This document shows positions 1-12,678 of a stretch of 12,678 bases of DNA, one piece after another; the stretch's first letter is position 1; each line of letters starts with the position of its first letter. This DNA comes from a virus (taxonomy: Duplodnaviria; Heunggongvirae; Uroviricota; Caudoviricetes). Under the pieces are notes generated by a model. The model saw only the letters and a program-made list of their open reading frames with translations, ran no database searches and was not told the origin of the DNA. The stretch lies in IMG/VR virus record IMGVR_UViG_2778261246_000007; one strand, written 5' to 3'. A program made the position numbers and the translations under genes.

Positions 1-141
1 TTACTGCTTACACTGTAAGAACGCCGCAAACTCCGCTCCCCAGAAGCTCATCCGTATTTCGCACAGCGAACCGTGCAGCATCCAGATGATGAGGATTGCC
101 GTCACGCAGAACGTGATGGCCGTAAGCGATTTTTGCGACAT
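1..141 (-). CDS. Hok/Gef-family type I toxin (small membrane peptide), 46 aa
   Basis: Reverse-strand ORF (ATG at 139-141, TAA at 1-3) translating to MSQKSLTAITFCVTAILIIWMLHGSLCEIRMSFWGAEFAAFLQCKQ. It has a hydrophobic N-terminal helix followed by SLCEIR and E-x-AAFL-x-CK, the Hok/Gef signature as I recall it (HokA-like). AAGGAG Shine-Dalgarno lies 8 nt upstream (rc of 150-155). The 8..271 ORF in the track is a different frame overlapping this gene, in the position of a mok-like reading frame. Confidence 0.6.
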   Translation of the reverse strand: MSQKSLTAITFCVTAILIIWMLHGSLCEIRMSFWGAEFAAFLQCKQ

Positions 142-331
142 AGCACTTGCTCCTTTTCAGGAGAGGCGCTAACCTTTCACTTGTCAAGGTAATGCGGTTA
201 GGGCCTCGGTTAAACAGAGATGTTTTCCGGGGCCTTTCCACATCTGGCCTTCGGGTATTCCCTCCGACCATCAGCCGAAAGGCACCCGCGCGTAATCTAT
301 CGCTTTTTTGTTACTCCGGCAATTCTGCTCG

Positions 332-592
332 TTAATTCTGAGATAAGGGCAAACTCATCTGATTGTTCCCCCTGTGTGAAGCTGGCAGAGCCTGCCACGG
401 TATGTCTTCTGAAGAATGAACTTCTGAGGTGTGTTTTGATGTGAACTTATGAAAAGCTTCCAGTGTTGAGAAGCATACGCCGCATTCCAGGTTATTACAC
501 TGGTAATACTTTTGCCGCACGGTGTTTGAGTCATTTTCCGGACGACTGGTGCGGATACGGGCAGACGCGCCACAAAGTGGACAACGGAACAT
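332..592 (-). CDS. ogr: Ogr/Delta-family zinc-finger late gene transcriptional activator
   Basis: 86-aa ORF MFRCPLCGASARIRTSR...YYQCNNLECGVCF with the C-x2-C...C-x4-C arrangement and ARTSR motif of P2 Ogr. Strong SD AAGGGAGG 5-6 nt upstream of the ATG (rc of 593-610). Confidence 0.88.
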   Translation of the reverse strand: MFRCPLCGASARIRTSRPENDSNTVRQKYYQCNNLECGVCFSTLEAFHKFTSKHTSEVHSSEDIPWQALPASHRGNNQMSLPLSQN

Positions 593-1016
593 AGCGACCT
601 CCCTTAACGTGGTGTTTCTATTATTCTAAGTTGTACTAATACTGATTCCAACTAACTGCTTGCTTTGAGTGAAAACCAGAAGTTTGCAGTTGAATTTTCA
701 CTGAGTAAGTAGTCGAGATTGACTATGCACTAGTAGGATTATTCTACGTGATTGAAGGCAACTTGTTGGTATGTAGATGATTTTACTGGTGGCAGTGTTG
801 TAAGTTTTTATCTCCCCGGTTTGTCTTTGACGCTATCTACTAGTTATTTAGTCGTGCTAAAATAAAACGCTGATTGAGTTCCTTTGGGTTAGGTTGATAA
901 CTCTCAGAGACTTTGGGAGGTGTAAGATTCGAACTTAATCGCTAAGTTTCATACTCTTGGCACTCGTTTGCCTCTACAAAAGTATGTTTTTTAACACAAA
1001 TAAAAGAAGTGCATTT

Positions 1017-2429
1017 ATGAGTATTCAACATATAAAAGTTGGCAGTATATCAGAAATTATTGATCTATCATCTAATTCTGGCGAGCATGCTGATTCTCAT
1101 CCTTTTATCCTCTCGAAGAACTGTGTATGGGGAGAACAGGGGGCAGAAATATCAATTGAGAAATTGCGCCAAAATATTGAGCCCTGGCTAACAGCTCTCT
1201 TCCAATCAGAGCATTTAAATTTATTAATCGGTGCAGGCTTAAGCTCGGCTATTCAAAAATCAGCTACAGGTTTATCTCCAGTAGGGATGGGGTGGATTAA
1301 TGATTTAAAAGTATGTAAAAGCGAAATAGATGAATTTTCCACTCAGGCTGCAAAAGCTGCAGGTCGCGACAGAGGAAATATAGAAGACCAAATTAGAACT
1401 ATCAATGAACTTATTAAAGGTCTCGAAATTTTAACGGTGTTAAATACTCCTCAACCAGAAAATCCGCCACCTCCTTATTCTGCTTATAGAAACTTAAAAG
1501 CAGACTTGGGCGAGCTCAAAGGCGAGCTTTCTAGATGCTTGGGGGAGTTTTCTAAATCTATAATTAAAGGAGAATATTTAATCAAAACTGCTGAACCAGC
1601 CCGGAAAGAGGAAACTTTCAACTATCTAGTTAGTTTTTTGATGAGCTTTGCAAGTAGAACTGCCACTCGCGATAGGCTACATATCTTTACAACAAATTAT
1701 GACCGTATTATTGAAGTGGGTGCTGAGCTTGCTGGTTTAAGACTTATTGATCGCTTTGTAGGAAGTATTGCTCCAGTATTTCGATCCTCAAGATTAGAAG
1801 TTGATTATCATTATAATCCTCCTGGAATCCGTGGTGAACCAAGATACTTGGAGGGCGTGGCACGTTTTACTAAACTTCATGGTTCCCTTGATTGGCATGA
1901 ACAAAATAATGCGATTAGGCGCTTTGGCTTACCCTTTGGAGCACGTTCTGTTGAGCCGTTTTTGGAAGCCGAAGGTCATCAAAGCAATGGCTATGAAAAA
2001 CTGATGATTTACCCTAATTCAGTAAAAGACAGAGAAACAGCCGAGTATCCTTATGTTGAGCTATTTCGAGATCTGGCAGCAGCAACTAGCCGTCCAAATA
2101 GCACATTAGTCACTTATGGTTATAGCTTTGGTGATGAGCATATCAATAGAGTAATTGAAGACATGCTTACGGTACCTTCCACTCATATAGTAATAATAGC
2201 CTTTGGCGATCCACTTGGCAGAATTATGCGTTTCATTAGTAATAGTGGAAGAAAAGCACAGATCACCCTTTTAATGGGAGATCATTTAGGAGACTTCAAA
2301 ACTTTAGTTGATAACTATTTACCTAAACCAGCTATTGATAAAGCATCAATCAAGATGGCAGAGTTGCTCAAACAAAGAGGCTTTATGCAGTTCAAAGAGT
2401 TAGGTAATTCAGCCGAAGTTGAGGTATGA
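1017..2429 (+). CDS. SIR2-like (SIR2_2/DUF4020-type) NAD-binding protein, predicted NADase effector of a SIR2-HerA system
   Basis: Motifs read directly from the translation: LLIGAGLS (nt 1221-1244, GAG Rossmann motif), FTTNYD (nt 1686-1703), KLHGSLDW with HGS (nt 1878-1886). Start is ambiguous: ATG 1017 is preferred (MSIQHIK...), alternatives are TTG 957 and ATG 984; none has a strong SD. The TGA stop at 2427-2429 overlaps the downstream start region. Confidence 0.82.
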   Translation: MSIQHIKVGSISEIIDLSSNSGEHADSHPFILSKNCVWGEQGAEISIEKLRQNIEPWLTALFQSEHLNLLIGAGLSSAIQKSATGLSPVGMGWINDLKVCKSEIDEFSTQAAKAAGRDRGNIEDQIRTINELIKGLEILTVLNTPQPENPPPPYSAYRNLKADLGELKGELSRCLGEFSKSIIKGEYLIKTAEPARKEETFNYLVSFLMSFASRTATRDRLHIFTTNYDRIIEVGAELAGLRLIDRFVGSIAPVFRSSRLEVDYHYNPPGIRGEPRYLEGVARFTKLHGSLDWHEQNNAIRRFGLPFGARSVEPFLEAEGHQSNGYEKLMIYPNSVKDRETAEYPYVELFRDLAAATSRPNSTLVTYGYSFGDEHINRVIEDMLTVPSTHIVIIAFGDPLGRIMRFISNSGRKAQITLLMGDHLGDFKTLVDNYLPKPAIDKASIKMAELLKQRGFMQFKELGNSAEVEV

Positions 2430-2431
2430 CA

Positions 2432-4465
2432 ATGAGTTATTTACCAATAGAAAAAATAGAACAACTAAGAATTGGAACTGTTGAGTTTGTATCACCTAAT
2501 GAAATTAGGGTGTCTTTAGAGATTGATTCTCCTGATTCAGTATCACTTCAAGGTGGGGCGCCTCGTAATTTTCCTAGAATAAATAGTTATATTTTAATCC
2601 GTAGTGATGACGGGTTTCTTGTTGGGCAAGTTGAGTGGATTGCAATAGAAAACTCGCCATATCCCAAAAGAAGAGGCTTACAAGATTTTGGGTTGATAGA
2701 CCTTCCTTTCCCACTTAAAAAGCTCAGTATCAATCCAGTTGGTACATTGAGAGTTGATAGAAAAAACGAAGGTTTCAGGTTCACGAGAGGAACTGATGCT
2801 TTCCCTTCGGTTGGTGACTCTGTGCTTTTGCCTACTGACCGACAATTACAATCAATAATTGAATCAGGTGATAATAGAAGGGTAAAAATAGGGGATAGCC
2901 CCCTAGCTAACAATGCTGAAATAAAAGTAGACCCCGATAGACTTTTCGGACGACATATAGCTGTTTTAGGTAATACGGGTAGTGGTAAATCATGTTCGGT
3001 GGCCGGCTTAATTCAATGGTCTCTTGATGCTGTTTTACAACAGGGAAAATCTCCAAATGCTCGATTTATAATACTTGATCCGAACGGAGAATATAGTAGA
3101 GCTTTAGGGCCAGAATCAAGATATAAGGGTAAACTATTACGTGTAGAGGCTAACATCGATGTCGGAGAGATGGATCTTAAAGTACCTTCATGGTTATGGA
3201 ATAGTTCTGAGTGGGCTGCTTTCACTCAAGCAAGTTCAAAGGTGCAACTTCCTTTACTACGTCGTGCTTTGAGGGCAATGAGGAATAATCTTCTATCAGA
3301 AGATGATGTGAAAATTCAAGCCAAACGCTTTTGCGGTATCCTTCTTGTATCTATGAGACAGCAGGCAAGTCAAGGTCAGATATATGTGAATAGTGGATCT
3401 GCTAAAGGTTTGGTTGAAACTTTGGGTTCTTGGAGAGATAGTATTTCTATCTTAAACGAGAGAATTGTTGATAAATCGCTCGATAAGCTAATAAACACAA
3501 TAAATACGTATCTTTCTTCACGAAGTGGATCTTCTTGGCCAGCAAAGCCTGTTGTTTCCGAGATTGAGTTGTTGATTAATGGATTTAGAGATGCATATAC
3601 AGCTCTAGGGGGAGATGAACAAGAACTTCTTCCAAAAAGCGAAGATGCGCCTATGCGTTTTAAAGGCGATGATTTTGTCGCATATCTCGAAGCTCTGGCT
3701 CAAGAAACAGGTACAGAACAATTCGTGGAGTTTCTTTTGACTCGTATTCGAACAATGCTAGGTGACACTCGTATTAGTGCAGTAACCAATGATTCTGTAA
3801 AGCCTATAAGTTTAACTAATTGGTTAGACACTTTTCTCGGTAAAAATGAACAAGGATCTATAACTGTTATAGATTTATCTCTAGTACCAAATGAAATAAT
3901 TCATTTGGTAACAGCTGTAATTTCTAGGGTGGCTTTTGAAGCACTACAACGTTATCGAAGATTAAATGGAAGGCCGCTACCAACAGTTTTAGTTGCAGAA
4001 GAAGCGCATACGTTTATTAAACGTTACAAGGAAGATAGTGAAACTCAGTCAGTCTCTGATATATGTTGCAAGGTGTTTGAAAAGATTGCACGGGAAGGAA
4101 GAAAGTTTGGGCTAGGCCTTGTTGTTTCTTCCCAAAGGCCATCAGAGCTATCTCCGACGGTTTTATCTCAATGTAATACTTTTTTGTTGCACAGGATTAG
4201 TAATGATAGAGATCAAGAGCAAGTACATAGACTTGTTCCAGATAATATGAGAGGGCTGTTGAGAGAGCTGCCATCGTTACCATCTAGGCATGCTATTTTA
4301 CTTGGATGGGCTTCAGAACTTCCTGTTTTAGTTAGAATGAAAGAGCTTACTGAAAAACAACGACCGCAATCTGATGATCCTGATTTTTGGGATGTGTGGT
4401 CTGGCACTACAAAAGAACCTCGGAAAGTTAATTGGCAACAGATAGCTGATGATTGGCAAAGTTGA
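2432..4465 (+). CDS. herA: HerA-family (FtsK/HerA superfamily) P-loop ATPase, partner of the SIR2 protein
   Basis: Walker A GNTGSGKS (nt 2969-2992), ILDPNGEY motif, Walker-B-like VLVAEEAH (nt 3986-4009), VVSSQRPSEL, and about 170 residues before the P-loop where HerA proteins have their HAS-barrel. ATG 2432 has GAGG 7 nt upstream; the alternative ATG 2426 overlaps the SIR2 stop as ATGA. Confidence 0.88.
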   Translation: MSYLPIEKIEQLRIGTVEFVSPNEIRVSLEIDSPDSVSLQGGAPRNFPRINSYILIRSDDGFLVGQVEWIAIENSPYPKRRGLQDFGLIDLPFPLKKLSINPVGTLRVDRKNEGFRFTRGTDAFPSVGDSVLLPTDRQLQSIIESGDNRRVKIGDSPLANNAEIKVDPDRLFGRHIAVLGNTGSGKSCSVAGLIQWSLDAVLQQGKSPNARFIILDPNGEYSRALGPESRYKGKLLRVEANIDVGEMDLKVPSWLWNSSEWAAFTQASSKVQLPLLRRALRAMRNNLLSEDDVKIQAKRFCGILLVSMRQQASQGQIYVNSGSAKGLVETLGSWRDSISILNERIVDKSLDKLINTINTYLSSRSGSSWPAKPVVSEIELLINGFRDAYTALGGDEQELLPKSEDAPMRFKGDDFVAYLEALAQETGTEQFVEFLLTRIRTMLGDTRISAVTNDSVKPISLTNWLDTFLGKNEQGSITVIDLSLVPNEIIHLVTAVISRVAFEALQRYRRLNGRPLPTVLVAEEAHTFIKRYKEDSETQSVSDICCKVFEKIAREGRKFGLGLVVSSQRPSELSPTVLSQCNTFLLHRISNDRDQEQVHRLVPDNMRGLLRELPSLPSRHAILLGWASELPVLVRMKELTEKQRPQSDDPDFWDVWSGTTKEPRKVNWQQIADDWQS

Positions 4466-4563
4466 GATGTTTAACCAATTTCCAGTGGGGCTATAAGCAG
4501 TGTCTCATATTTGAGATAGGAAGGAGCTGATTCCTTTCGATTGATACAGTACGAAATTATATA

Positions 4564-4589
4564 TGTCCGCTCTTGGCACAGAGCGGACA
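4564..4589. terminator. Perfect 9-bp inverted repeat hairpin between the convergent HerA and D genes; likely D terminator, possibly bidirectional
   Basis: tgtccgctc (4564-4572), loop ttggcaca, gagcggaca (4581-4589). On the minus strand it is followed by AT-rich tatataatttcg. It lies about 45 nt past the D stop and about 100 nt past the HerA stop. Confidence 0.4.
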
Positions 4590-4633
4590 GTCAGAAAACT
4601 GAAGGGGGTAGGCGTGCAATACATCTTAGCTGA

Positions 4634-5743
4634 TCAAGCTGTTTCTGCTATCCATTCCGGGATTTTTGCCTCAAGTTCAAGCTGCGTGGTAAAGCCGCTG
4701 TTATCAATGGTGTGCTCGGCTTTTGCAATAATCCAGTCCTGATTATCAATCTCGCTTTTAAATCCTGTTACCGTGCCATGCATTTCGGGGTAGAGTTCTG
4801 CTCGTCCACGTGCCAGCGTGATGGAGAATGATGCGGCTCCGCGTTGTAGTTGTTGCCACTTTGCCGCCGCTGCGCGTCTTGCTGCCTGCTCGTTCTGATA
4901 AGTCTTGCGTAACACAAACACATTGCCTTCCGCGCCTTCCATATAATCACCTTCACGGCTGCTGCTTTTCTCTTTTTTCGGTTTTGGCGGTTTGCGGCGT
5001 TTCACGCTGACTTTTTTCTTTTTCCCGTAATTAAGATCAAGCCAGTAAGCGCGTACCCCCGTATACGACTCGCGGTCAGCAATGCGGAACTGATGGCGAT
5101 CGCCGCTGCTGCGTGTGATGGCGAACGATGGCAACGGCTGGCCCTGTGCGTTCACGCCACCGCCGGGCATGATGAATAACAGATTACCGCTTTTTACTGT
5201 GGTGATTGCGCCCAGCATTTCCGCCATGCGCGTAAGGAAGGACATGTCACTTTCTTCGGTCTGGTCGGCGTGGTCGATTTCGATATCCATCAGCATTTCG
5301 CTGATTTGCGGTTTCAGACCGTACCGATGAGCGATGGCGGATACCACACGCTCAACGGTCACATCATGCCAGGACACCTCACGTTTAACGTTAAATTCAT
5401 CCCGAAAATCTGCGCTTCTGGCTGAAACAGTCAGCCTGTCCGGCGGTCCTTCGTGTGCGATTTCATCAACAATGTAAGTGCCTTTTTCTGTCAGCGGTTC
5501 GCCTTTCCAGCCAATGAGAACCGTCAGGCGCGCGCCCCGTGGCGCTAGCTGCAACTGACCATCCGCATCATCCAGCGTGATGGTGAGCTGGTCCGCCTCA
5601 AATCCCCGGTTGTCGGTCAGTGACAGGGTCATCAGGCGCTCTGCCACGCCTGACAGCGTTTTACCCTCCGCGAGAATATCAAAATCCGGCATTTTCACGG
5701 GGTCTGTGCCCTGACTGAGCAATTGCATGGTGGTATCGGTCAT
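4634..5743 (-). CDS. D: P2 gpD-like tail protein (late control gene D)
   Basis: 369-aa ORF with P2 D-like sequence as I recall it. Start is taken at ATG 5741-5743, preceded by AGGGAGGG SD (rc of 5749-5756), rather than the longer 413-aa track ORF. Confidence 0.85.
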   Translation of the reverse strand: MTDTTMQLLSQGTDPVKMPDFDILAEGKTLSGVAERLMTLSLTDNRGFEADQLTITLDDADGQLQLAPRGARLTVLIGWKGEPLTEKGTYIVDEIAHEGPPDRLTVSARSADFRDEFNVKREVSWHDVTVERVVSAIAHRYGLKPQISEMLMDIEIDHADQTEESDMSFLTRMAEMLGAITTVKSGNLLFIMPGGGVNAQGQPLPSFAITRSSGDRHQFRIADRESYTGVRAYWLDLNYGKKKKVSVKRRKPPKPKKEKSSSREGDYMEGAEGNVFVLRKTYQNEQAARRAAAAKWQQLQRGAASFSITLARGRAELYPEMHGTVTGFKSEIDNQDWIIAKAEHTIDNSGFTTQLELEAKIPEWIAETA

Positions 5744-5900
5744 CTGTTCCCTCCCTGTGTGGCATGGTCGCATGTGCGTGCGGAGGGGGTTACTGCTTTT
5801 TGTTGTCGCCGGGTCGGGAGAACGGCGCAGGGGTGAGATTACGCGCGTGGTGGGTGATGATTGTTGCCGAATCATTTAACGGATACAAGGGGCTGAAGCT

Positions 5901-7085
5901 ATGAGTGAAACTCGTTTTCATGGTGCCCGTGTTACGGAAAATACCGACCTGGTAACAGCGATTAACGATGTTGATTCCAGCGTTATCGGTATCGTGGCAA
6001 CGGCGGATGATGCGGACGCGAAGCTGTTCCCGCTGAACAAGCCCACATTGCTGACCCGCGTCAATGACGTGCTGGGAAAATGCGGAACAACGGGGACGCT
6101 TTATCGTGCGCTTAAGGCCATCGCAGACCAGGTGAGCACAAAGGTGATCGTCGTTCGCGTGGCTGAACACAAAGAAGAAGACGGAAAGACGCAGGATCAA
6201 CTGGTTATCGGTGGTTCTGAGGATGACGGCAGCTATACGGGGATGTATGCGTTGCTTGTTGCAGAGCAGGATGAAAGCATCGGATACCGTCCGCGTATTC
6301 TGGCCGCGCCGGAGCTGGACACGGAGGCTGTAACAAAATCCCTGTGCGTGATTGCAGGTAAACTGCGCGCGTTTGTGTATGCCTCATGTCACGGCTGTAA
6401 CACGATGGCTGAGGCGATTACCTATCGCCAGAAATTCAACGAACGTGAGGTGATGCTCTTATGGCCGGACTTCATCGCCTACAACCCGAAAAGTGGCAAA
6501 AACGAAACGTTCCCCGCGCCTGCCTATGCGTGCGGCCTTCGTGCGTACATTGACCATGAGCAGGGGTGGCACAAATCACTGTCCAACGTTCCGGTTAAAA
6601 ATGTGCTGGGGATGTCGAGGCATGTGTTCTGGTCGTTGCAGGCCGAAGACAGCGATGCCAACAGCCTCAACAACAAAGAAATCACGACCATTATTCGTCG
6701 CAACGGGTTCCGCTTCTGGGGCAACCGCACACCGGAAACGAACGCCTACATCTTTGAGGTGTATACCCGAACCGCACAGGTGCTGGCTGATTCAATTGCG
6801 GAAGCGCAGTTTGAAACCATCGACAGTCCACTGACGCCTGCGAACGTGAAGGATGTTATCAGTGCCATCAGGGCAAAACTGGATTCGCTGGTTACTGCCG
6901 GGAAACTGATTGGCGCGGAGTGCTGGTATGACGTGGTGGATAACGGCACCACGGATTTACGTCAGGGGCGTGTGCGTATTCGCTACAAATATACGCCCGT
7001 TCCGCCACTGGAAGACATGGAGCTTTACCAGACGTTTACTGATGAATTCTTTGGTCCCGCATTTGCGGTGCTGGGAGGTGCCTGA
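5901..7085 (+). CDS. FI: Contractile tail sheath protein (P2 gpFI-like)
   Basis: 394 aa with recognisable gpFI blocks (NKPTLLT, GFRFWGNRT, YTRTAQV, YKYTPVPPLE). SD aagggg upstream; stop overlaps the FII start as TGATG. Confidence 0.92.
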   Translation: MSETRFHGARVTENTDLVTAINDVDSSVIGIVATADDADAKLFPLNKPTLLTRVNDVLGKCGTTGTLYRALKAIADQVSTKVIVVRVAEHKEEDGKTQDQLVIGGSEDDGSYTGMYALLVAEQDESIGYRPRILAAPELDTEAVTKSLCVIAGKLRAFVYASCHGCNTMAEAITYRQKFNEREVMLLWPDFIAYNPKSGKNETFPAPAYACGLRAYIDHEQGWHKSLSNVPVKNVLGMSRHVFWSLQAEDSDANSLNNKEITTIIRRNGFRFWGNRTPETNAYIFEVYTRTAQVLADSIAEAQFETIDSPLTPANVKDVISAIRAKLDSLVTAGKLIGAECWYDVVDNGTTDLRQGRVRIRYKYTPVPPLEDMELYQTFTDEFFGPAFAVLGGA

Positions 7086-7597
7086 TGGCTGTACCAAAAC
7101 ATCTTCGCTTTTTTACGTTGTTTGTGGATGGTGAAAACGAAGTGGGTAAAGTGACATCCGTCACGCCGCCCAAACTGACGCGCAAAACCGACAGCTATCG
7201 TGGTGGTGGCATGATGGGGGCGGTAAGTATTGATCTCGGTCTGGACGACTCCGCGCTTGATGCGAGTTTTGTTATGGGGGGGGCTGTTCGTGCGCTGTTC
7301 CTTAAATATGGCGGCACGATTGACGGCACGCTGCTGCGTTTTGCGGGTGAATACTACACCGATGCAGAAAGCGATCTGTATGAAATCGAGATGCGCGGAC
7401 GTGTGACGGAAATTGATATGGGGGAAGCCAAACAGGGCGAAGCCACATCACACACTTACGCTGTCAAAAACACCTACTACAAGCTGAGCGTTAACGATCG
7501 CCCGCTGTGGGAAATCGACCTGTTGAACCACATCTACCGGAAGGACGGCAAGGACATTGTGCCTGACCGTATCCGTTCCGCGCTTGGGCTTGGCTGA
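7085..7597 (+). CDS. FII: Tail tube protein (P2 gpFII-like)
   Basis: 170 aa immediately after FI with overlapping stop/start, GGGAGGTG SD upstream; size and position match gpFII. Confidence 0.88.
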   Translation: MAVPKHLRFFTLFVDGENEVGKVTSVTPPKLTRKTDSYRGGGMMGAVSIDLGLDDSALDASFVMGGAVRALFLKYGGTIDGTLLRFAGEYYTDAESDLYEIEMRGRVTEIDMGEAKQGEATSHTYAVKNTYYKLSVNDRPLWEIDLLNHIYRKDGKDIVPDRIRSALGLG

Positions 7598-7652
7598 TAA
7601 GTAATATGCAGGCGGCGCAGTGCGTCGCCTCTGACTGAAAAGGAGACAACTG

Positions 7653-8027
7653 ATGAAAGACATCGATACTGAAACCCGGAATAACACCGTGGCGGATGAT
7701 GTGACGGCAGGTGAGGATATGGCTGTCGAACGTGGCGTAAAACTTTCCCGGCCAATTGAGCGTGGTGCCGAAAAAATCACATATGTGGAAATCACCGGGG
7801 CTATTGAGCAGGCGGGATCCCTGCGTGGTCTGTCGCTGTCTGATGTGCTGAATCTGAAAGCGGATACCATGTTCACGCTGTTGCCTCGCGTGACCTCGCC
7901 ACGACTGGATGAAGTGATGATTAAAAAAATGTCGTCACGCGATTTTATTCAGTTGTGCGCTGTGGCTGTAAATTTTATGAGCGAGCCAGACTCTGGCGCG
8001 AAGAGCGTGCAGGAGACGGCAGCGTAA
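7653..8027 (+). CDS. E: Tail assembly chaperone gpE-like (zero-frame product)
   Basis: 124-aa ORF with AAGGAG SD 7 nt upstream, located between tube and tape-measure genes as in the P2 FETUD operon. Confidence 0.8.
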   Translation: MKDIDTETRNNTVADDVTAGEDMAVERGVKLSRPIERGAEKITYVEITGAIEQAGSLRGLSLSDVLNLKADTMFTLLPRVTSPRLDEVMIKKMSSRDFIQLCAVAVNFMSEPDSGAKSVQETAA

Positions 8028-8191
8028 TTACCCTGGTGTGCTTTGAGCACATCGAAGATCTGGTGGCGGATATTGCCGCCATTTTTAACTGGTCGCCCGC
8101 CGAAATCTTCATGATGACGCCCGGCGAAGTGGTTAGCTGGCGTGAGCGGGCGGCACTTCGCAGCGGGAATGTAGATAATGAAGACTCTTGA
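7653..8191 (+). CDS. gpE+E' frameshift fusion product (E N-terminus to 7976, then -1 frame to stop at 8189-8191)
   Basis: Overlapping -1 frame ORF downstream of the slippery site; analogous to P2 E/E+E' and lambda G/GT. The fusion ends inside the start of T. Confidence 0.55.
7970..7976 (+). other. Slippery heptamer A_AAT_TTT for programmed -1 frameshift E to E+E'
   Basis: In the E frame the codons are gtA AAT TTT, an X_XXY_YYZ heptamer. The -1 frame from here is open to 8191 and matches the track ORF 7955..8191 (KFYERARLW...). Confidence 0.6.
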
Positions 8192-10985
8192 TATCCGGGT
8201 CGCTTTCAGCGCCGTTGACAGGCTGACCCGGCCTGCCGAAAACGCCCGCCGCCTGATGGGGCAGTTTGGTGACTCCATCCAGCGAACGCAGGGGGCGATC
8301 AAAAATCTCGAGCGTCAGGCGCGTTCATTTGAGCGCGCCCGTGACGCTGTCAGTAAAGCGGATGCGGGCATCGTGAAAGCACGACGCCAGCTTAACGCCC
8401 TTAATCAGTTACAACGCACGGGTACAGTGCTCAGCGAAAAACAACAAAAGCTGATGCAGCAGTTAAGCACCCGGCTTGAACGCCTGAATGAATCGCGCAC
8501 ACGGGAAATTCAGAAAATGCGGGAGCTTGGCGGAGAACTGAAACGCCACGGCATTTCCCTGACAGGCAGCGATAACACCATTCAGCAGGCCATCAGACGC
8601 ACCGAACAATACAACAACCAGCTTGAACGCGAACGGCAGGCGCTTGCGCGTGTAACGCGGGCGCGTGAGCGGTATTCGCGCGCGCAGGAAACAGCGGGAA
8701 AACTGAAAACAGGTGGTGCGCTGGCAATTGGTGCGGCAGCGGCGGGCGGCTATGCTGCCGAGCGTTTTTTGCAGCCTGCGATCGGGTTCGGGAAAGAGAT
8801 GTCCCGCGTTCAGGCACTGACGCGAATCGACAAAAACAGCCCGCAGTTTAAGGCGCTGCGTGAGCAGGCGTTAAAACTTGGCTCTGAAACGCAGTTCACC
8901 GCAGGCGATGCCGCCAGTGGGCAGGCATTTCTTGCAATGGCTGGCTTCACACCGCAGGCCATTCAGGCTGCGCTCCCTGGCGTACTGAGCATGGCAACGG
9001 CTGGCGGTATGGACCTCGGTGAGACGGCGGATATTGGCTCAAATATTCTGACGCAGTTCGGTCTTTCTGCTGACCAGATGGACCGGGTCGGCGACACACT
9101 CACCGCAGCGTTTACCCGTACCAACACTGACCTTCGCGCACTGGGTGAAACCATGAAATATGCAGGTCCGGTGGCGGGTAAGCTGGGAATATCGCTGGAG
9201 CAGGCCGCAGCGATGGCGGGCGTGCTGGCGAATATGGGTATCAGGGGGAGTGATGCTGGTACGGCAATGCGTGCCAGCCTGGCTCGTCTGGCATCACCGC
9301 CAAAGGCGGCAGCAGAGGCGCTGAAAGAGCTTGGCGTGTCTGTCTCGGATGCCGGGGGCAAAATGCGCCCGATGGAGGATGTGCTGGCTGACCTTTATAA
9401 AGCTACCCGCAAATACGGGGAAGTTGACCGGGTATCGTTCTTTAAGGACATTGCCGGAGAAGAGGCTTTCACATCATTTATGGCCCTCGTTGATGCGGCA
9501 GGTGACGGCTCCTTACCCAAACTGAGAAAAGAACTTGAAGGCGCGCGCGGTGAGGCTGAACGCACGGCAAAGGTTATGGCCAACAACCTTGACGGCGATC
9601 TGAAATCACTCAGCAGTGCATGGGAAGGGTTGCGCATCCGCATTGCAGATCTGATTGACGGTCCGCTGCGTTCTGTCACGCAGTGGCTCACGCGTGTGGT
9701 ATCAAAGGTGACGGCGCTGGCGCAGGCCCATCCCGCACTGACGCGCCAGCTACTGATTGCAGGCGGTGCACTGCTGGCAATGACTGCAACGGTTGGCTCG
9801 TTGTCGCTGGCTATTGGTGTGTTTGCTGGCCCGCTGGCAAAACTGCGTCTTGGTTTTTCCCTCCTGACCGGATCAATGAATGCTGTCAGGGTTCTGCCAG
9901 CACTATGGGGAATGGTGACGGGTTCCGTTTCTTTACTGGGAGGCGCTATCGGGGCGTTGTTCAGTCCGGTTGGTCTTATCGTGGTTGCGCTTGCCGGAGC
10001 TGCCGTTCTTATCTGGAAATACTGGGATCCCATCAGGGCATTTTTTGCCGGAGTGTTCAGCGGGATTATGGAAAGGCTGACCCCGTTGCGCGAAACCTTT
10101 GAACGGTTTGGTCCTGTTTTTGACGCAATCGGGAGTGGGATCAGCCAGGTGTTTAACTGGTTTAAATCGCTGCTGTCACCGATGGAGTCCAGCAAGGAAA
10201 CTCTGGATAAATGTACCAGTGCTGGCGAGATATTCGGTAACGTTCTTGGCGGTGCGTTACAACTTGTTCTGACACCTGCAAAAATGTTGCTGGATACGCT
10301 GGCGTGGATACTTGAAAAGCTTGGTGTGCTTCCGGATGAAGCGGAAAGGGCGCGCAAGAAAATCGAAGACGCACAGCGTGCGGCCATTCTTCAGGACAAG
10401 GTTGCCTTGCTTCAGGGGGACCTGGCGAAAATCAATCCGCCGAAGCCTGTGGAAAATGGCAATGGCACCGGAGGTGATAACCCCAAAGACAATAAACCGC
10501 TCACAGACAGCAATACCGGTACGCTGCGCAGACTCAGCAAAATTGCTGATAACACAGGTAAGCTGGTTGATGAGACGAAAAAACGCATTGGCCCCGGCGA
10601 TATTGTCTTTAAGAACCTGCCCCGCGCACTTGCTGTTCGTGGGGAGTGGCAGGAGCGGAAGATTGCACAGGTCAGTAAGCCTGCTTCCGCAATCAACATC
10701 ACACCTGTGGTCCCGGCTCCGCTGCCTCCGGCGCTGGTCCCTGTTGTTGCGGCCAGCTCCCGCCCGGTGGCGGAGGCCATACGATCGCCAGTGGCATCAG
10801 TTCCTGCAACTTCCCGTAACCGGGAGCCTGCTGTCTCCGGATTTTGCGGTGAAATTCATGTTCATCTGCATAACGTTGTTACGCAGAATCCCCGCGAACT
10901 GGCGAAACTGGTCGGTGAAATGGTCAGGGCAGAAATGGAACGGCGCGCCCGTGCCGGGCGTGGCAGTTTTTACGATAAAGATTGA
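8178..10985 (+). CDS. T: Tail tape measure protein (P2 gpT-like)
   Basis: 935 aa; coiled-coil-rich N-terminal part, Gly/Ala-rich hydrophobic central segments and a Pro-rich C-terminal region; sits between E/E' and U. Confidence 0.9.
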   Translation: MKTLDIRVAFSAVDRLTRPAENARRLMGQFGDSIQRTQGAIKNLERQARSFERARDAVSKADAGIVKARRQLNALNQLQRTGTVLSEKQQKLMQQLSTRLERLNESRTREIQKMRELGGELKRHGISLTGSDNTIQQAIRRTEQYNNQLERERQALARVTRARERYSRAQETAGKLKTGGALAIGAAAAGGYAAERFLQPAIGFGKEMSRVQALTRIDKNSPQFKALREQALKLGSETQFTAGDAASGQAFLAMAGFTPQAIQAALPGVLSMATAGGMDLGETADIGSNILTQFGLSADQMDRVGDTLTAAFTRTNTDLRALGETMKYAGPVAGKLGISLEQAAAMAGVLANMGIRGSDAGTAMRASLARLASPPKAAAEALKELGVSVSDAGGKMRPMEDVLADLYKATRKYGEVDRVSFFKDIAGEEAFTSFMALVDAAGDGSLPKLRKELEGARGEAERTAKVMANNLDGDLKSLSSAWEGLRIRIADLIDGPLRSVTQWLTRVVSKVTALAQAHPALTRQLLIAGGALLAMTATVGSLSLAIGVFAGPLAKLRLGFSLLTGSMNAVRVLPALWGMVTGSVSLLGGAIGALFSPVGLIVVALAGAAVLIWKYWDPIRAFFAGVFSGIMERLTPLRETFERFGPVFDAIGSGISQVFNWFKSLLSPMESSKETLDKCTSAGEIFGNVLGGALQLVLTPAKMLLDTLAWILEKLGVLPDEAERARKKIEDAQRAAILQDKVALLQGDLAKINPPKPVENGNGTGGDNPKDNKPLTDSNTGTLRRLSKIADNTGKLVDETKKRIGPGDIVFKNLPRALAVRGEWQERKIAQVSKPASAINITPVVPAPLPPALVPVVAASSRPVAEAIRSPVASVPATSRNREPAVSGFCGEIHVHLHNVVTQNPRELAKLVGEMVRAEMERRARAGRGSFYDKD

Positions 10986-10997
10986 GGAGTCATGGCC

Positions 10998-11486
10998 ATG
11001 ATGATGATCTATGGCATGTTTGTTTTTGAGCTGCGCACGCTGCCGCATCAGCAGTTACAGCAAAACAAAAGCTGGCGGCATGTGAAAAATGAACGCGTTA
11101 ACCGTTCAGCAAGCTGGCAGTATATCGGTGCAGGTGATGATCGCATCGTTCTTTCTGGTGTGCTTTATCCTGAAATTACAGGTGGCGAAGTGTCGCTGTC
11201 GCTGCTGACCACGCAGGCGTATACAGGACGACCCTGGCCTTTGATTGATGGCGTCGGGCAGATTTACGGCATGTATGTCCTGACCGGAACGAATACGATC
11301 CGTTCCGAGTTTGATCGCTACGGTAAGGCGAAAAAGATAGAATTTTCACTGACCCTTGAACGCTGTGATGAGGATTTGCGGGAGCGCCTGCAATCCTCAT
11401 CGTTCAGCGATATGCTGTCCGGCTTCAAAGATAAGGTGGCGTCATCCCTTAACAGTGCGGTCAGTTCTGTTAAGGGACTGTTCTGA
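10998..11486 (+). CDS. U: Tail protein gpU-like
   Basis: About 162 aa starting MMMIYGMFVFELRTLP..., resembling P2 gpU as I recall it. GGAG lies 9 nt upstream of ATG 10998; ATG 10992 is an alternative start. Confidence 0.82.
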   Translation: MMMIYGMFVFELRTLPHQQLQQNKSWRHVKNERVNRSASWQYIGAGDDRIVLSGVLYPEITGGEVSLSLLTTQAYTGRPWPLIDGVGQIYGMYVLTGTNTIRSEFDRYGKAKKIEFSLTLERCDEDLRERLQSSSFSDMLSGFKDKVASSLNSAVSSVKGLF

Positions 11487-11529
11487 TTTAACGCAAATCA
11501 CAAATAGTTAGATAAACAGAAATAACGAT

Positions 11530-11556
11530 AAGGCCCGATATTCGGGCCTTTCGTTT
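11530..11556. terminator. Bidirectional rho-independent terminator between convergent U and tail-fibre assembly genes
   Basis: Stem aaggcccg (11530-11537), loop atatt, cgggcctt (11543-11550), followed by tcgtttatt on the + strand and by atcgttatttctgttt on the minus strand. Confidence 0.65.
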
Positions 11557-12088
11557 ATTCTGGTTGATCAGGGAACGTAACGGGTAATTCAGTGGTATCA
11601 GTGGTCTCAACTTGTTGCACGTACCGCATCCAGCGCATCAGTTGTTGCTTATCTGAATCACTGATAATCCCTAATGCAAGCTGGGTCTGCCAGAACTGCG
11701 TTTTTTCTCTGGCCTGCTGTAATAACCTTTGTTTCTGGTTTTCAGCCTGCAAGCGTTGCTCTTCTTCGGTATACACACGTTTAATGACTGAGCCATCTTT
11801 AAACATCCAGTTACCTGAAATATCAGCGCGTCGGTTTGCTGTAATATTAGGCAACTCGACAACACTTTTTCCTTCCGGGCAAATTGCAGTTACATCCGTT
11901 TGCACGTCGCATATGACATTATTTTCATCATATGCAATCTTTATGGTGTCTGGCTGAAAGTTCTTTTGTTCCTCATACCAGTTTTTACCATCTTCAGCGA
12001 ATAACCAGACAACGCCGGAGTTTTTAGTTAACAGGTACTGTTCTTTTGTTTTTGGATTGCCCGGTTTTATATTTTTTAAATGCATCAT
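11555..12088 (-). CDS. Tail fibre assembly protein (Tfa / P2 gpG-like chaperone)
   Basis: 177 aa starting MMHLKNIKPGNPKTKEQY... with WYEEQKNFQPDT and C-terminal TDTTELPVTFPDQPE typical of Tfa proteins. ATG at 12086-12088 lies 2 nt from the upstream tail-fibre stop. Confidence 0.85.
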   Translation of the reverse strand: MMHLKNIKPGNPKTKEQYLLTKNSGVVWLFAEDGKNWYEEQKNFQPDTIKIAYDENNVICDVQTDVTAICPEGKSVVELPNITANRRADISGNWMFKDGSVIKRVYTEEEQRLQAENQKQRLLQQAREKTQFWQTQLALGIISDSDKQQLMRWMRYVQQVETTDTTELPVTFPDQPE

Positions 12089-12090
12089 AA

Positions 12091-12657
12091 TCAAACACTC
12101 GATACGTTATACCATGTACCATTAATATTTTTTTGAATTGGTCTGTAATAAACACCACCAATATTATCGGCAGAGTTTGAGCCTGTATCCTGAACGATAA
12201 TCCCGGTATATGCGCAACCAGATGGAGCCTGATGCGTCCATGTTGTACCGTTATTTGCTGGTTTATAGGATGACGCACCACCAAGTCTAATATCCCGGAC
12301 ATAGCGTGAATCAAAGTTGCCATAGTTAGATGGTGATACCTGCCCGTTAACAGCAAAAGTGATGCTGTTATCTGTATTTCTCTGACTGTAAAAATGCCAG
12401 CCTGCATCATCACCTAATTCAGCCACCACCGGACGACTTGCGTTTCCCCACAAATTGAATGCGGCTTCCTTCGTGGATGTATTGCTGCTGCTGACCGTGA
12501 ACTTTTTCCCGCTACCGGCACGTACTTTGGTACTTGAGACAATATCACCTGTGAGCTGGCCCCCTGAAATACCAGACAGTAGATGTATCTTAAAATAAGA
12601 GATAGGCTTGGATATATGTCTAACACTAGTTCTAATTTTGAGATGGCTGGCGTTTTG
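12091..12657 (-). CDS. Tail fibre C-terminal (receptor-binding) segment, start-less within the window
   Basis: The frame is open from 12657 down to the stop at 12091-12093 and ends ...GGVYYRPIQKNINGTWYNVSSV. The only in-frame canonical start is TTG at 12451-12453. An in-frame stop at 12658-12660 lies upstream, and the other frames there do not look coding. Confidence 0.5.
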   Translation of the reverse strand, partial: QNASHLKIRTSVRHISKPISYFKIHLLSGISGGQLTGDIVSSTKVRAGSGKKFTVSSSNTSTKEAAFNLWGNASRPVVAELGDDAGWHFYSQRNTDNSITFAVNGQVSPSNYGNFDSRYVRDIRLGGASSYKPANNGTTWTHQAPSGCAYTGIIVQDTGSNSADNIGGVYYRPIQKNINGTWYNVSSV

Positions 12658-12678
12658 TTAGGAAAAGAGGTGCGTAAA

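Follow-up and report, generated by a model that had tools for sequence, protein, structure and literature searches.

Inverted FI-U tail gene block of a P88-like Escherichia coli prophage as the regular gene order of a P2-related clade in Enterobacterales

The window analysed here, i.e. the whole stretch of 12,678 nucleotides in the virus record IMGVR_UViG_2778261246_000007, is 100% identical to the E. coli C7 and C3 prophages and carries tail genes, all of which are intact, an ogr-type activator gene, and a cargo region (Table 1). The homologues of the sheath, the tube, U, and the hub D all score above the Pfam cut-offs and belong to PHROGs 23, 55, 76, and 52. A -1 frameshift immediately ahead of T, giving an E/E+E' chaperone pair, is predicted from the slippery sequence A_AAT_TTT at positions 7970-7976 and from the -1 frame, which is open until position 8191 and runs across the start of T (8178); RefSeq annotates the segment 8036-8191 as a GpE-family protein. 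A GGGAGGG ribosome-binding site is present at the D start (position 5743). As described in the initial annotation, D and FI diverge across a 157-bp spacer, and U ends at a bidirectional terminator that tfa and the tail fibre gene approach from the other side; the gene identities and strands were as claimed, and a matching hairpin was found between U and tfa, where it is common to the convergent FI-U and H-tfa transcripts. GC-rich hairpins downstream of U are frequent across the clade described below. Scans of the window for Rfam families and tRNAs gave no matches.

Table 1 Features of the window (positions refer to the whole stretch of 12,678 nucleotides)
Feature	Position	Strand	Basis or remark
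ogr-type late activator	332-592	-	Pfam Ogr_Delta, E=4e-14; zinc finger C-X2-C-X24-C-X4-C
Low-GC cargo between ogr and D	633-4638	+	Not part of the tail module
SIR2	1017-2429	+	PADLOC, E=2.5e-155
HerA	2432-4465	+	PADLOC, E=2.2e-252
Terminator-like hairpin between convergent D and HerA	4564-4589	-	10-bp stem followed by a T-rich tail
D, baseplate hub/late control D	4634-5743	-	Pfam Phage_GPD, PHROG 52; RefSeq start; reads away from FI
D/FI divergent spacer	5744-5900		Exactly 157 bp
-10-like hexamer GACCAT, putative D promoter	5764-5769	-	Positions 44-49 from box centre
Ogr-type box TGT-N12-AGA	5804-5821		Centre 5812.5; one mismatch, 5-of-6 match
-10-like hexamer GATGAT, FI (pF) promoter	5856-5861	+	Positions 44-49 from box centre
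FI, tail sheath	5901-7085	+	Pfam Phage_sheath_1 and sheath C-terminal domain, PHROG 23
FII, tail tube	7085-7597	+	Pfam Phage_tube, E=2e-45
E	7653-8027 (E+E' by -1 frameshift, end 8191)	+	PHROG 103, reading frames
T, tape measure protein	8178-10985	+	RefSeq annotation; 33% identity to P2 T
U, tail protein	10992-11486 (RefSeq start 10998)	+	Pfam Phage_P2_GpU, E=2e-37
Bidirectional intrinsic-terminator-like hairpin	11530-11550		9-bp stem, T-rich sequence beyond it on both strands
tfa, tail fibre assembly protein	11555-12094 (RefSeq 11555-12088)	-	Pfam Caudo_TAP, PHROG 136
H, tail fibre gene, 3' part, runs on past the window	12091-12678	-	Annotated by RefSeq as a tail fibre protein in E. coli C7; tblastn comparison with H of P2 and P88

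An activator of the Ogr/Delta type is encoded next to D, though a cargo region lies between the two genes. The cargo has a GC content of 37-41%, compared with 52-59% in the tail genes, and takes the place of the 42-bp spacer that separates D and ogr in phage P88. It encodes SIR2 and HerA, a known anti-phage pair. Once D and ogr were no longer part of the F operon, the gap between them may have become available for defence cargo of this kind.

In P2, the order H-G-(Z)-FI-FII-E-T-U-D-ogr is found on a single strand, and the canonical F-operon organisation consists of co-oriented FI-FII-E-T-U-D genes with overlapping or abutting U and D. The window departs from it in that D lies on the opposite strand, 157 bp from FI. 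A whole-genome comparison of P88 with P2 revealed that only FI-U is flipped, and agrees with the geometry read by the initial annotation, i.e. an in-place inversion of FI-U compared with P2, with U uncoupled from D. From D through U, the window is 93-98% identical to P88, P884B11, PhiSM, and ten further phage records, each of which matches as one colinear piece; the identities to P88 (96.1%) and P884B11 (98.1%) refer to positions 4639-11497 of the window only, while genus demarcation uses whole genomes. The gene order of the remaining C7 prophage agrees with that of P88, and the inverted block lies between the tail-fibre genes and D as in Xuanwuvirus. Of these relatives, P88 is a plaque-forming phage whose burst size is about 65 (PMC5285337), and PhiSM is active as a temperate phage (PMC6456863).

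The arrangement is widespread. Among the 5426 complete E. coli genomes, 1355 have an intact D/FI junction, whereas a chimeric junction with the canonical U-D order occurs in none of the 1412 E. coli genomes carrying these genes. A scan of bacterial species genomes found the inverted order in all loci whose D is at least 61% identical (62/62, from about 27 genera of Enterobacterales), whereas all 18 loci with D identities of 53% or less had the canonical order, as did two outgroup phages. A neighbour-joining tree of D separates the two classes by a clean split. The clade extends to D identities of 61%, with spacers too diverged for DNA matching. Overlapping U and D genes in canonical order occur in P2, the Fels-2-like phage RE-2010, Kapieceevirus, Ralstonia phage RSA1, and Mannheimia phage phiMhaA1. 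Gene order, fixation, and phylogenetic distribution can be read directly from these genomes. The assignment of all inverted loci to the class with D identities of at least 61%, and of all canonical loci to that of at most 53% and the outgroups, indicates that the inversion is old, fixed, and derived. We regard it as very probable that the window represents the right-hand part of a P88-like E. coli prophage (Xuanwuvirus, Peduoviridae), and that the block composed of the pF promoter, FI, FII, E/E', T, and U underwent a single, ancient in-place inversion that then became fixed, both there and in the wider P2-related clade of Enterobacterales.

The initial annotation had offered a real rearrangement, a distinct lineage, or a misassembly as explanations, and the distinct lineage proved to be the right one. 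Wrong orientation of the FI-U block in this assembly can be dismissed as practically impossible: the unusual order relative to P2 is all that speaks for it, and identical junctions occur in the 13 independent phage records, in the 1355 E. coli genomes, and in the 62 loci of about 27 other genera, as well as in isolated plaque-forming phages. A recent, possibly inactivating rearrangement confined to this one prophage or its strain has a negligible probability. It might be suspected from the C7 prophage, which may be decaying because its portal gene is frameshifted and its X gene truncated, but the tail genes of the window are intact and the same order is found in functional phages and all through the deep clade. 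Close relatives with exactly this arrangement and intact function are thus at hand (P88, PhiSM, the E. coli genomes, and the 62 loci), and the order is lineage-typical.

A programmed, reversible segment that switches the orientation of FI-U, comparable to the G, C, or P type segments on which Gin, Cin, or Pin act, is suggested by the DNA invertase gene adjoining U in some members of the clade, including P88, but appears extremely unlikely. Inverted-repeat crossover sites are absent at both boundaries, the C7 prophage lacks an invertase homologue, none of the 1412 E. coli genomes or of the 62 clade loci shows the opposite orientation, and the invertase occurs sporadically among inverted and canonical phages alike and flanks the tail-fibre cassette in P88. 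Given the sporadic occurrence in both classes, the absence here, and the lack of crossover-like repeats, a neighbouring Cin/Gin-type invertase acting at a secondary site likewise finds no support as the origin of the inversion. No inverted repeats linking 5744-5900 with 11487-11554 were detected in a search across 5600-11700, which returned nothing but the palindrome of the terminator and some short pairs attributable to chance, and bears out the earlier report of none at the two junctions. Remodelling of the D N-terminus or the U C-terminus at a breakpoint was also considered and rejected, as both termini are ordinary and of similar length in the alignments. The mosaic nature of P2-like phages, the tail-gene rearrangements reported in other members such as Smp131 (PMC3931495), and the lack of breakpoint scars as proof of inversion would suit a replacement of the module, in which recombination supplied an ancestor with a related FI-U cassette, by chance in reverse orientation; this would leave the same picture as an inversion. 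We nevertheless judge it unlikely, as FI, FII, and U are about as diverged from P2 as D (42-48% identity), their identities track that of D across the clade, as expected under co-descent, and the distance between the pF box and the FI start codon is the same as in P2. A single inversion is more parsimonious, and we infer that the change took place by in-place inversion rather than by module replacement.

The inverted order places the pF promoter region between D and FI. Ogr/Delta-dependent late promoters have the consensus TGT-N12-ACA (PMC3931495), and the initial annotation had noted the absence of an Ogr-type box from the spacer. This holds for the exact consensus, whose sole occurrence in the window is located inside D (5454-5471) and which is less frequent than expected by chance; the statement is misleading in that a 5-of-6 box of the TGT-N12-AGA type is present, homologous to the exact boxes of relatives. 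The exact-consensus search was dropped as a test because the boxes of P2 fail it too: those of pF, pO, and pV also deviate on one half-site and reach a 5-of-6 match or worse. Among the spacers of 64 relatives, 36 contain the exact TGT-N12-ACA and 23 the AGA variant at the aligned position, and the box is the best-conserved element, which in part reflects shared descent of homologous spacers and not independent constraint. To either side of the box centre, these spacers have kept the ACA half-sites (positions 7-9) and an nA..AT motif (positions 44-49), the latter in the register found at P2 late promoters. The spacer length is kept at about 145-162 bp, and the distance between box centre and FI start codon ranges from 78.5 to 88.5 nt with a mode of 82.5 nt, which equals that of P2 pF. 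The sequence TTTTGTTGT-N12-AGAAC was also found in the O/P spacer of the same phage. A scan for sigma-70 consensus promoters found no match in the spacer, which is uninformative, since this is expected for activator-dependent promoters.

The conserved geometry of these motifs is evident in the sequence itself, and an intact ogr gene is present. The dyad-symmetric pF activator site lies midway between two mirror-image -10-like hexamers, and from this position, at about -55.5, a single site would activate the FI-U operon from a start predicted at ~5868 and D from one predicted at ~5757. In this model, Ogr binding, the D promoter, and the start sites are all predicted, the right half-site of the window is AGA rather than ACA, and the hexamer on the D side (GACCAT) is poor as a -10 element. 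On balance, we lean slightly towards the view that the inversion made the F-operon promoter truly bidirectional, with the symmetric Ogr site driving FI-U to the right and D to the left from starts ~111 bp apart, that the pP/pO architecture was thereby recreated at a second locus, and that the symmetry of the site was what made the inversion viable. As a result of the inversion, U has lost its translational coupling to D, the FI-U operon stops at the hairpin terminator common to it and the convergent baseplate/tail-fibre operon, and D followed by ogr forms a separate unit divergent from FI.

The flipped tail block is ordinary and neither a rearrangement nor an assembly error, because it is the normal, fixed order of a large, already sequenced P2-related group comprising P88 and its relatives. 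The group is common, sequenced, and classified by the ICTV, and because this layout is standard in it, the arrangement calls for no flag as rearrangement or misassembly and carries little weight as a discovery. In the literature on P88, PhiSM, Xenorhabdus xnp1, Burkholderia P2-like phages, and Peduoviridae, no explicit statement of the inversion was found, and for this reason the arrangement is known from annotated public genomes rather than from a published description. Of modest value are the use of the FI-U orientation relative to D as a simple synteny marker, which distinguishes a large clade of P2-like prophages in Enterobacterales from canonical ones, and the natural example of a symmetric activator site that would allow an operon to be split and inverted without loss of co-regulation. 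A note of caution concerns searches for exact TGT-N12-ACA motifs, which overlook real late-promoter boxes, including those of P2.

Compared with the P2 F operon (pF-FI-FII-E-E'-T-U-D, reading on into ogr), the window encodes the same eight products with 33-48% identity (48% for D), and shares the -1 frameshift for E+E', the Ogr-type activator, and the late-promoter box at equal distance from FI. It differs in that FI-U is opposite in strand to D and ogr, that the overlapping start and stop codons of U and D are lost, and that D has its own ribosome-binding site and probably its own promoter. The divergent late promoters pP and pO of P2, for which one activator-binding site is annotated, likewise have a dyad-symmetric box midway between divergent genes, with -10-like elements at positions 44-49 on both sides. 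The four mapped late starts of P2 are located at positions 56-57 from the box centres, pP and pO as a pair on one site, and the ~111 bp between the predicted starts of the window equal the spacing of the mapped P2 starts 3016 and 3127. The pP/pO site drives the packaging and head operons, whereas the site of the window would serve D and FI-U from predicted starts. Escherichia phage P88 and other Xuanwuvirus members (e.g. P884B11, Citrobacter phage PhiSM, 520873, and 500465-2) have an identical strand layout, composed of H and tfa, the inverted U-T-E-FII-FI block, and D, ogr, and hok. In P88, the interval from tfa to U contains a DNA invertase as well as an alternative tail-fibre/tfa cassette, neither of which occurs in the window. 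The D-ogr gap of P88 lacks the 4-kb SIR2-HerA insertion, and its tfa and H sequences differ from those of the window. The inverted FI-U order is also found in the Klebsiella phage genera Reginaelenavirus and Reipivirus. Their D/FI spacer measures 153-154 bp and its box is exact or nearly so, but they share only 60-72% protein identity with the window and have another host genus.

The tail-gene order of the window is real, and it is the usual arrangement in a phage lineage that is known, common and functional. The layout was compiled from the ORF listing, profile searches and the RefSeq annotation of the identical region in E. coli C7, and every element of the tail-gene arrangement described in the initial annotation holds, coordinates included. 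The D start at 5743 is preceded by a GGGAGGG ribosome-binding site, and the hairpin between U and tfa (11530-11550) is followed by a T-rich stretch on either strand.

Features of the window and of the D/FI spacer
Feature	Position	Strand	Remark
hok/gef toxin gene	8-148	-	prophage end
ogr	332-592	-	
SIR2	1017-2429	+	low-GC pair with HerA
HerA	2432-4465	+	low-GC pair with SIR2
D	4634-5743	-	
D/FI spacer	5744-5900		157 bp
-10-like hexamer GACCAT	complement of 5764-5769		D side
-10-like hexamer GATGAT	5856-5861		FI side
FI	5901-7085	+	
FII	7085-7597	+	
E	7653-8027	+	E' extends to 8191
T	8178-10985	+	
U	10992/10998-11486	+	
hairpin	11530-11550		between U and tfa
tfa	11555-12088/12094	-	
tail fibre gene H, 3' part	after tfa	-	

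Several details of these genes may be recorded here. The host gene ihfA lies about 300 bp from hok/gef (L002, E. coli C7, 17397-18141), and no Rfam RNA, such as the antisense Sok, was matched in the window. The cysteines of the Ogr homologue are spaced C-X2-C-X24-C-X4-C, with 24 residues between the pairs compared with 22 in P2 Ogr. The predicted frameshift site of the E/E' tail chaperone is A_AAT_TTT (7970-7976), whereas P2 uses a T-run; RefSeq lists E' (8036-8191) as a small 'GpE family' gene of its own and not as the product of a frameshift.

In the P2 record, H, G, (Z/fun), FI, FII, E, E', T, U, D and ogr are located on a single strand; the U and D genes share one base, and the F operon is served by one terminator after ogr. 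The window proteins share 33-48% identity with their P2 counterparts. The complete phage P88 genome (L001, NC_026014.1) has FI-U alone reversed relative to P2, while the portal/terminase, head, lysis, baseplate, fibre, D, ogr, int and early genes keep the P2 orientation. Since FI-U is the sole flipped block, an in-place inversion, as initially proposed, is an accurate description of the difference from P2. In P88, D is directly followed by an intact homologue of ogr (34476-34733) that shares 93% identity with the window's and is unannotated in RefSeq.

The arrangement is widely shared. Prophages of E. coli C7 and C3 are 100% identical to the window, and D through U forms one colinear match at 93-98% in 13 phage records, including P88, Xuanwuvirus P884B11 and Citrobacter phage PhiSM. 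Of these, P88 is plaque-forming, and its burst size is about 65 (PMC5285337); PhiSM is temperate and active (PMC6456863). Among 5426 complete E. coli genomes, 1355 had an intact match to a 651-bp probe spanning the D/FI junction. For the canonical junction, a synthetic probe in which the 3' end of U was fused to the 5' end of D was intact in none of the 1412 E. coli genomes with these genes. Of the explanations considered in the initial annotation, a misassembly is ruled out by the identical prophages, the phage records, the functional P88 and PhiSM and the many genomes with the same junction, and a private rearrangement by the same order in relatives, functional phages among them, so that the distinct lineage stands and the order is lineage-typical. 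A switchable segment is likewise ruled out by the result with the canonical-junction probe. In the C7 prophage containing the window, the portal gene is frameshifted and the gene for tail protein X is truncated (L002 42582-43629 and 37125-37322); this copy may be defective, or the lesions may be sequencing errors.

Klebsiella phages of the genera Reginaelenavirus and Reipivirus also have the inverted order, at 60-72% protein identity, whereas Kapieceevirus and the Fels-2-like RE-2010, whose D proteins are about 51-52% identical to that of the window, are canonical. A species-level scan with one genome per bacterial species yielded 80 loci. All 62 loci with a D protein at least 61% identical were inverted, and they came from about 27 genera, ranging from Salmonella and Klebsiella to Xenorhabdus, Photorhabdus, Providencia and Yersinia; all 18 with at most 53% identity were canonical. 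A neighbour-joining tree of D showed a single clean division between the two classes, and the outgroup phages of Ralstonia and Mannheimia were canonical. Taken together, the identity split, the D tree and the outgroups argue that the inverted state is derived, arose once and marks a large clade in the Enterobacterales. One scan locus (L009, NZ_JBQPOM010000071.1, labelled Vagococcus sp. WN89Y) is a 226-kb contig carrying a 97-98% identical Xuanwuvirus prophage, in which the hok/gef end is likewise on the ihfA side; because its flank shows 85% identity to the E. coli ihfA-pheT-pheS region, the contig is enterobacterial, a sign that the assembly is contaminated or mislabelled. Symbiopectobacterium genomes (L013, L014, L018, L028, L029, L072, L087) contain several copies of the inverted-type tail module, and fragmented FI, T or D matches in some copies suggest pseudogenes.

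With respect to how the inversion arose, no repeats are left at the breakpoints, as had been noted initially for the two junctions, and the termini of D and U are ordinary in appearance. An invertase-mediated origin is without support, since invertase genes occur sporadically in both the inverted and the canonical class. Replacement of the FI-U module by one in reverse orientation is improbable: the divergence of FI, FII and U keeps pace with that of D, which makes replacement less parsimonious than inversion.

At the right-hand side, tail-fibre genes converging on U are typical across the clade, and a GC-rich hairpin downstream of U is common. A plausible origin for the hairpin of the window is the terminator of the baseplate/fibre operon; it would now act in both directions. 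The window's exact U/tfa junction is rare (28 complete E. coli genomes), owing to the variability of the fibre and tfa genes and to the invertase and alternative fibre cassette that many relatives carry there. P88 has a DNA invertase and an alternative tail-fibre/tfa cassette between tfa and U (L001 24860-27600), both of which are missing from the window prophage (window 11487-12678). On the other side of the module, a 4-kb low-GC insert with the SIR2 and HerA anti-phage pair (633-4638) separates D and ogr, whereas P88 has a 42-bp spacer instead; in other E. coli relatives this gap is empty or contains a His-Xaa-Ser radical-SAM (HxsB/HxsC) cluster with IS2. Given these differing contents, the D-ogr gap is in its behaviour a variable cargo site.

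No paper was found in the literature that spells out the FI-U inversion, which is plainly visible in annotated public genomes; the sole mildly new point is an inferred bidirectional late promoter in the D/FI spacer. The length of this spacer is conserved across the clade (about 145-162 bp), and among 64 distinct spacers that were aligned, TTGTTGT-N12-A(C/G)A is the most conserved element. Ogr-dependent late promoters have the published consensus TGT-N12-ACA (PMC3931495), and the P2 pF, pO and pV boxes differ from it in one half-site. The initial annotation had reported no TGT-N12-ACA Ogr-type box in the spacer: the exact consensus is indeed absent there, but a one-mismatch form, TGT-N12-AGA, lies at 5804-5821. 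This form is found in 23 of the 64 spacers, with 36 exact and five degenerate. The centre of the element is 78.5-88.5 nt from the FI ATG in every case, with a mode of 82.5 equal to the P2 pF value, and such a box occurred in the same zone in only 1.5% of shuffled spacers. The TTTTGTTGT-N12-AGAAC of the D/FI spacer recurs in the O/P spacer of the same phage.

When positions were counted outward from the box centre, ungapped and in both directions, both sides shared an ACA half-site at positions 7-9 and nA..AT at 44-49. On the D side, a CG-alternating stretch (consensus CACGCGCGCG, window 5770-5783) between the box and the -10-like hexamer is conserved clade-wide in the aligned columns of the 64 spacers, and the O/P spacer has a similar CGCGCGCG at the equivalent position ahead of the -10-like hexamer of the P gene. 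From the mirrored motif geometry we infer that one Ogr site would activate two divergent promoters, for FI-U and for D, with predicted starts at about 5868 (+) and 5757 (-), of which the latter would place the ribosome-binding site within a leader of about 14 nt. This model also draws on P2, whose four mapped late transcripts begin at positions 56-57 from their own box centres and whose divergent pP and pO have a single annotated activator site in common.
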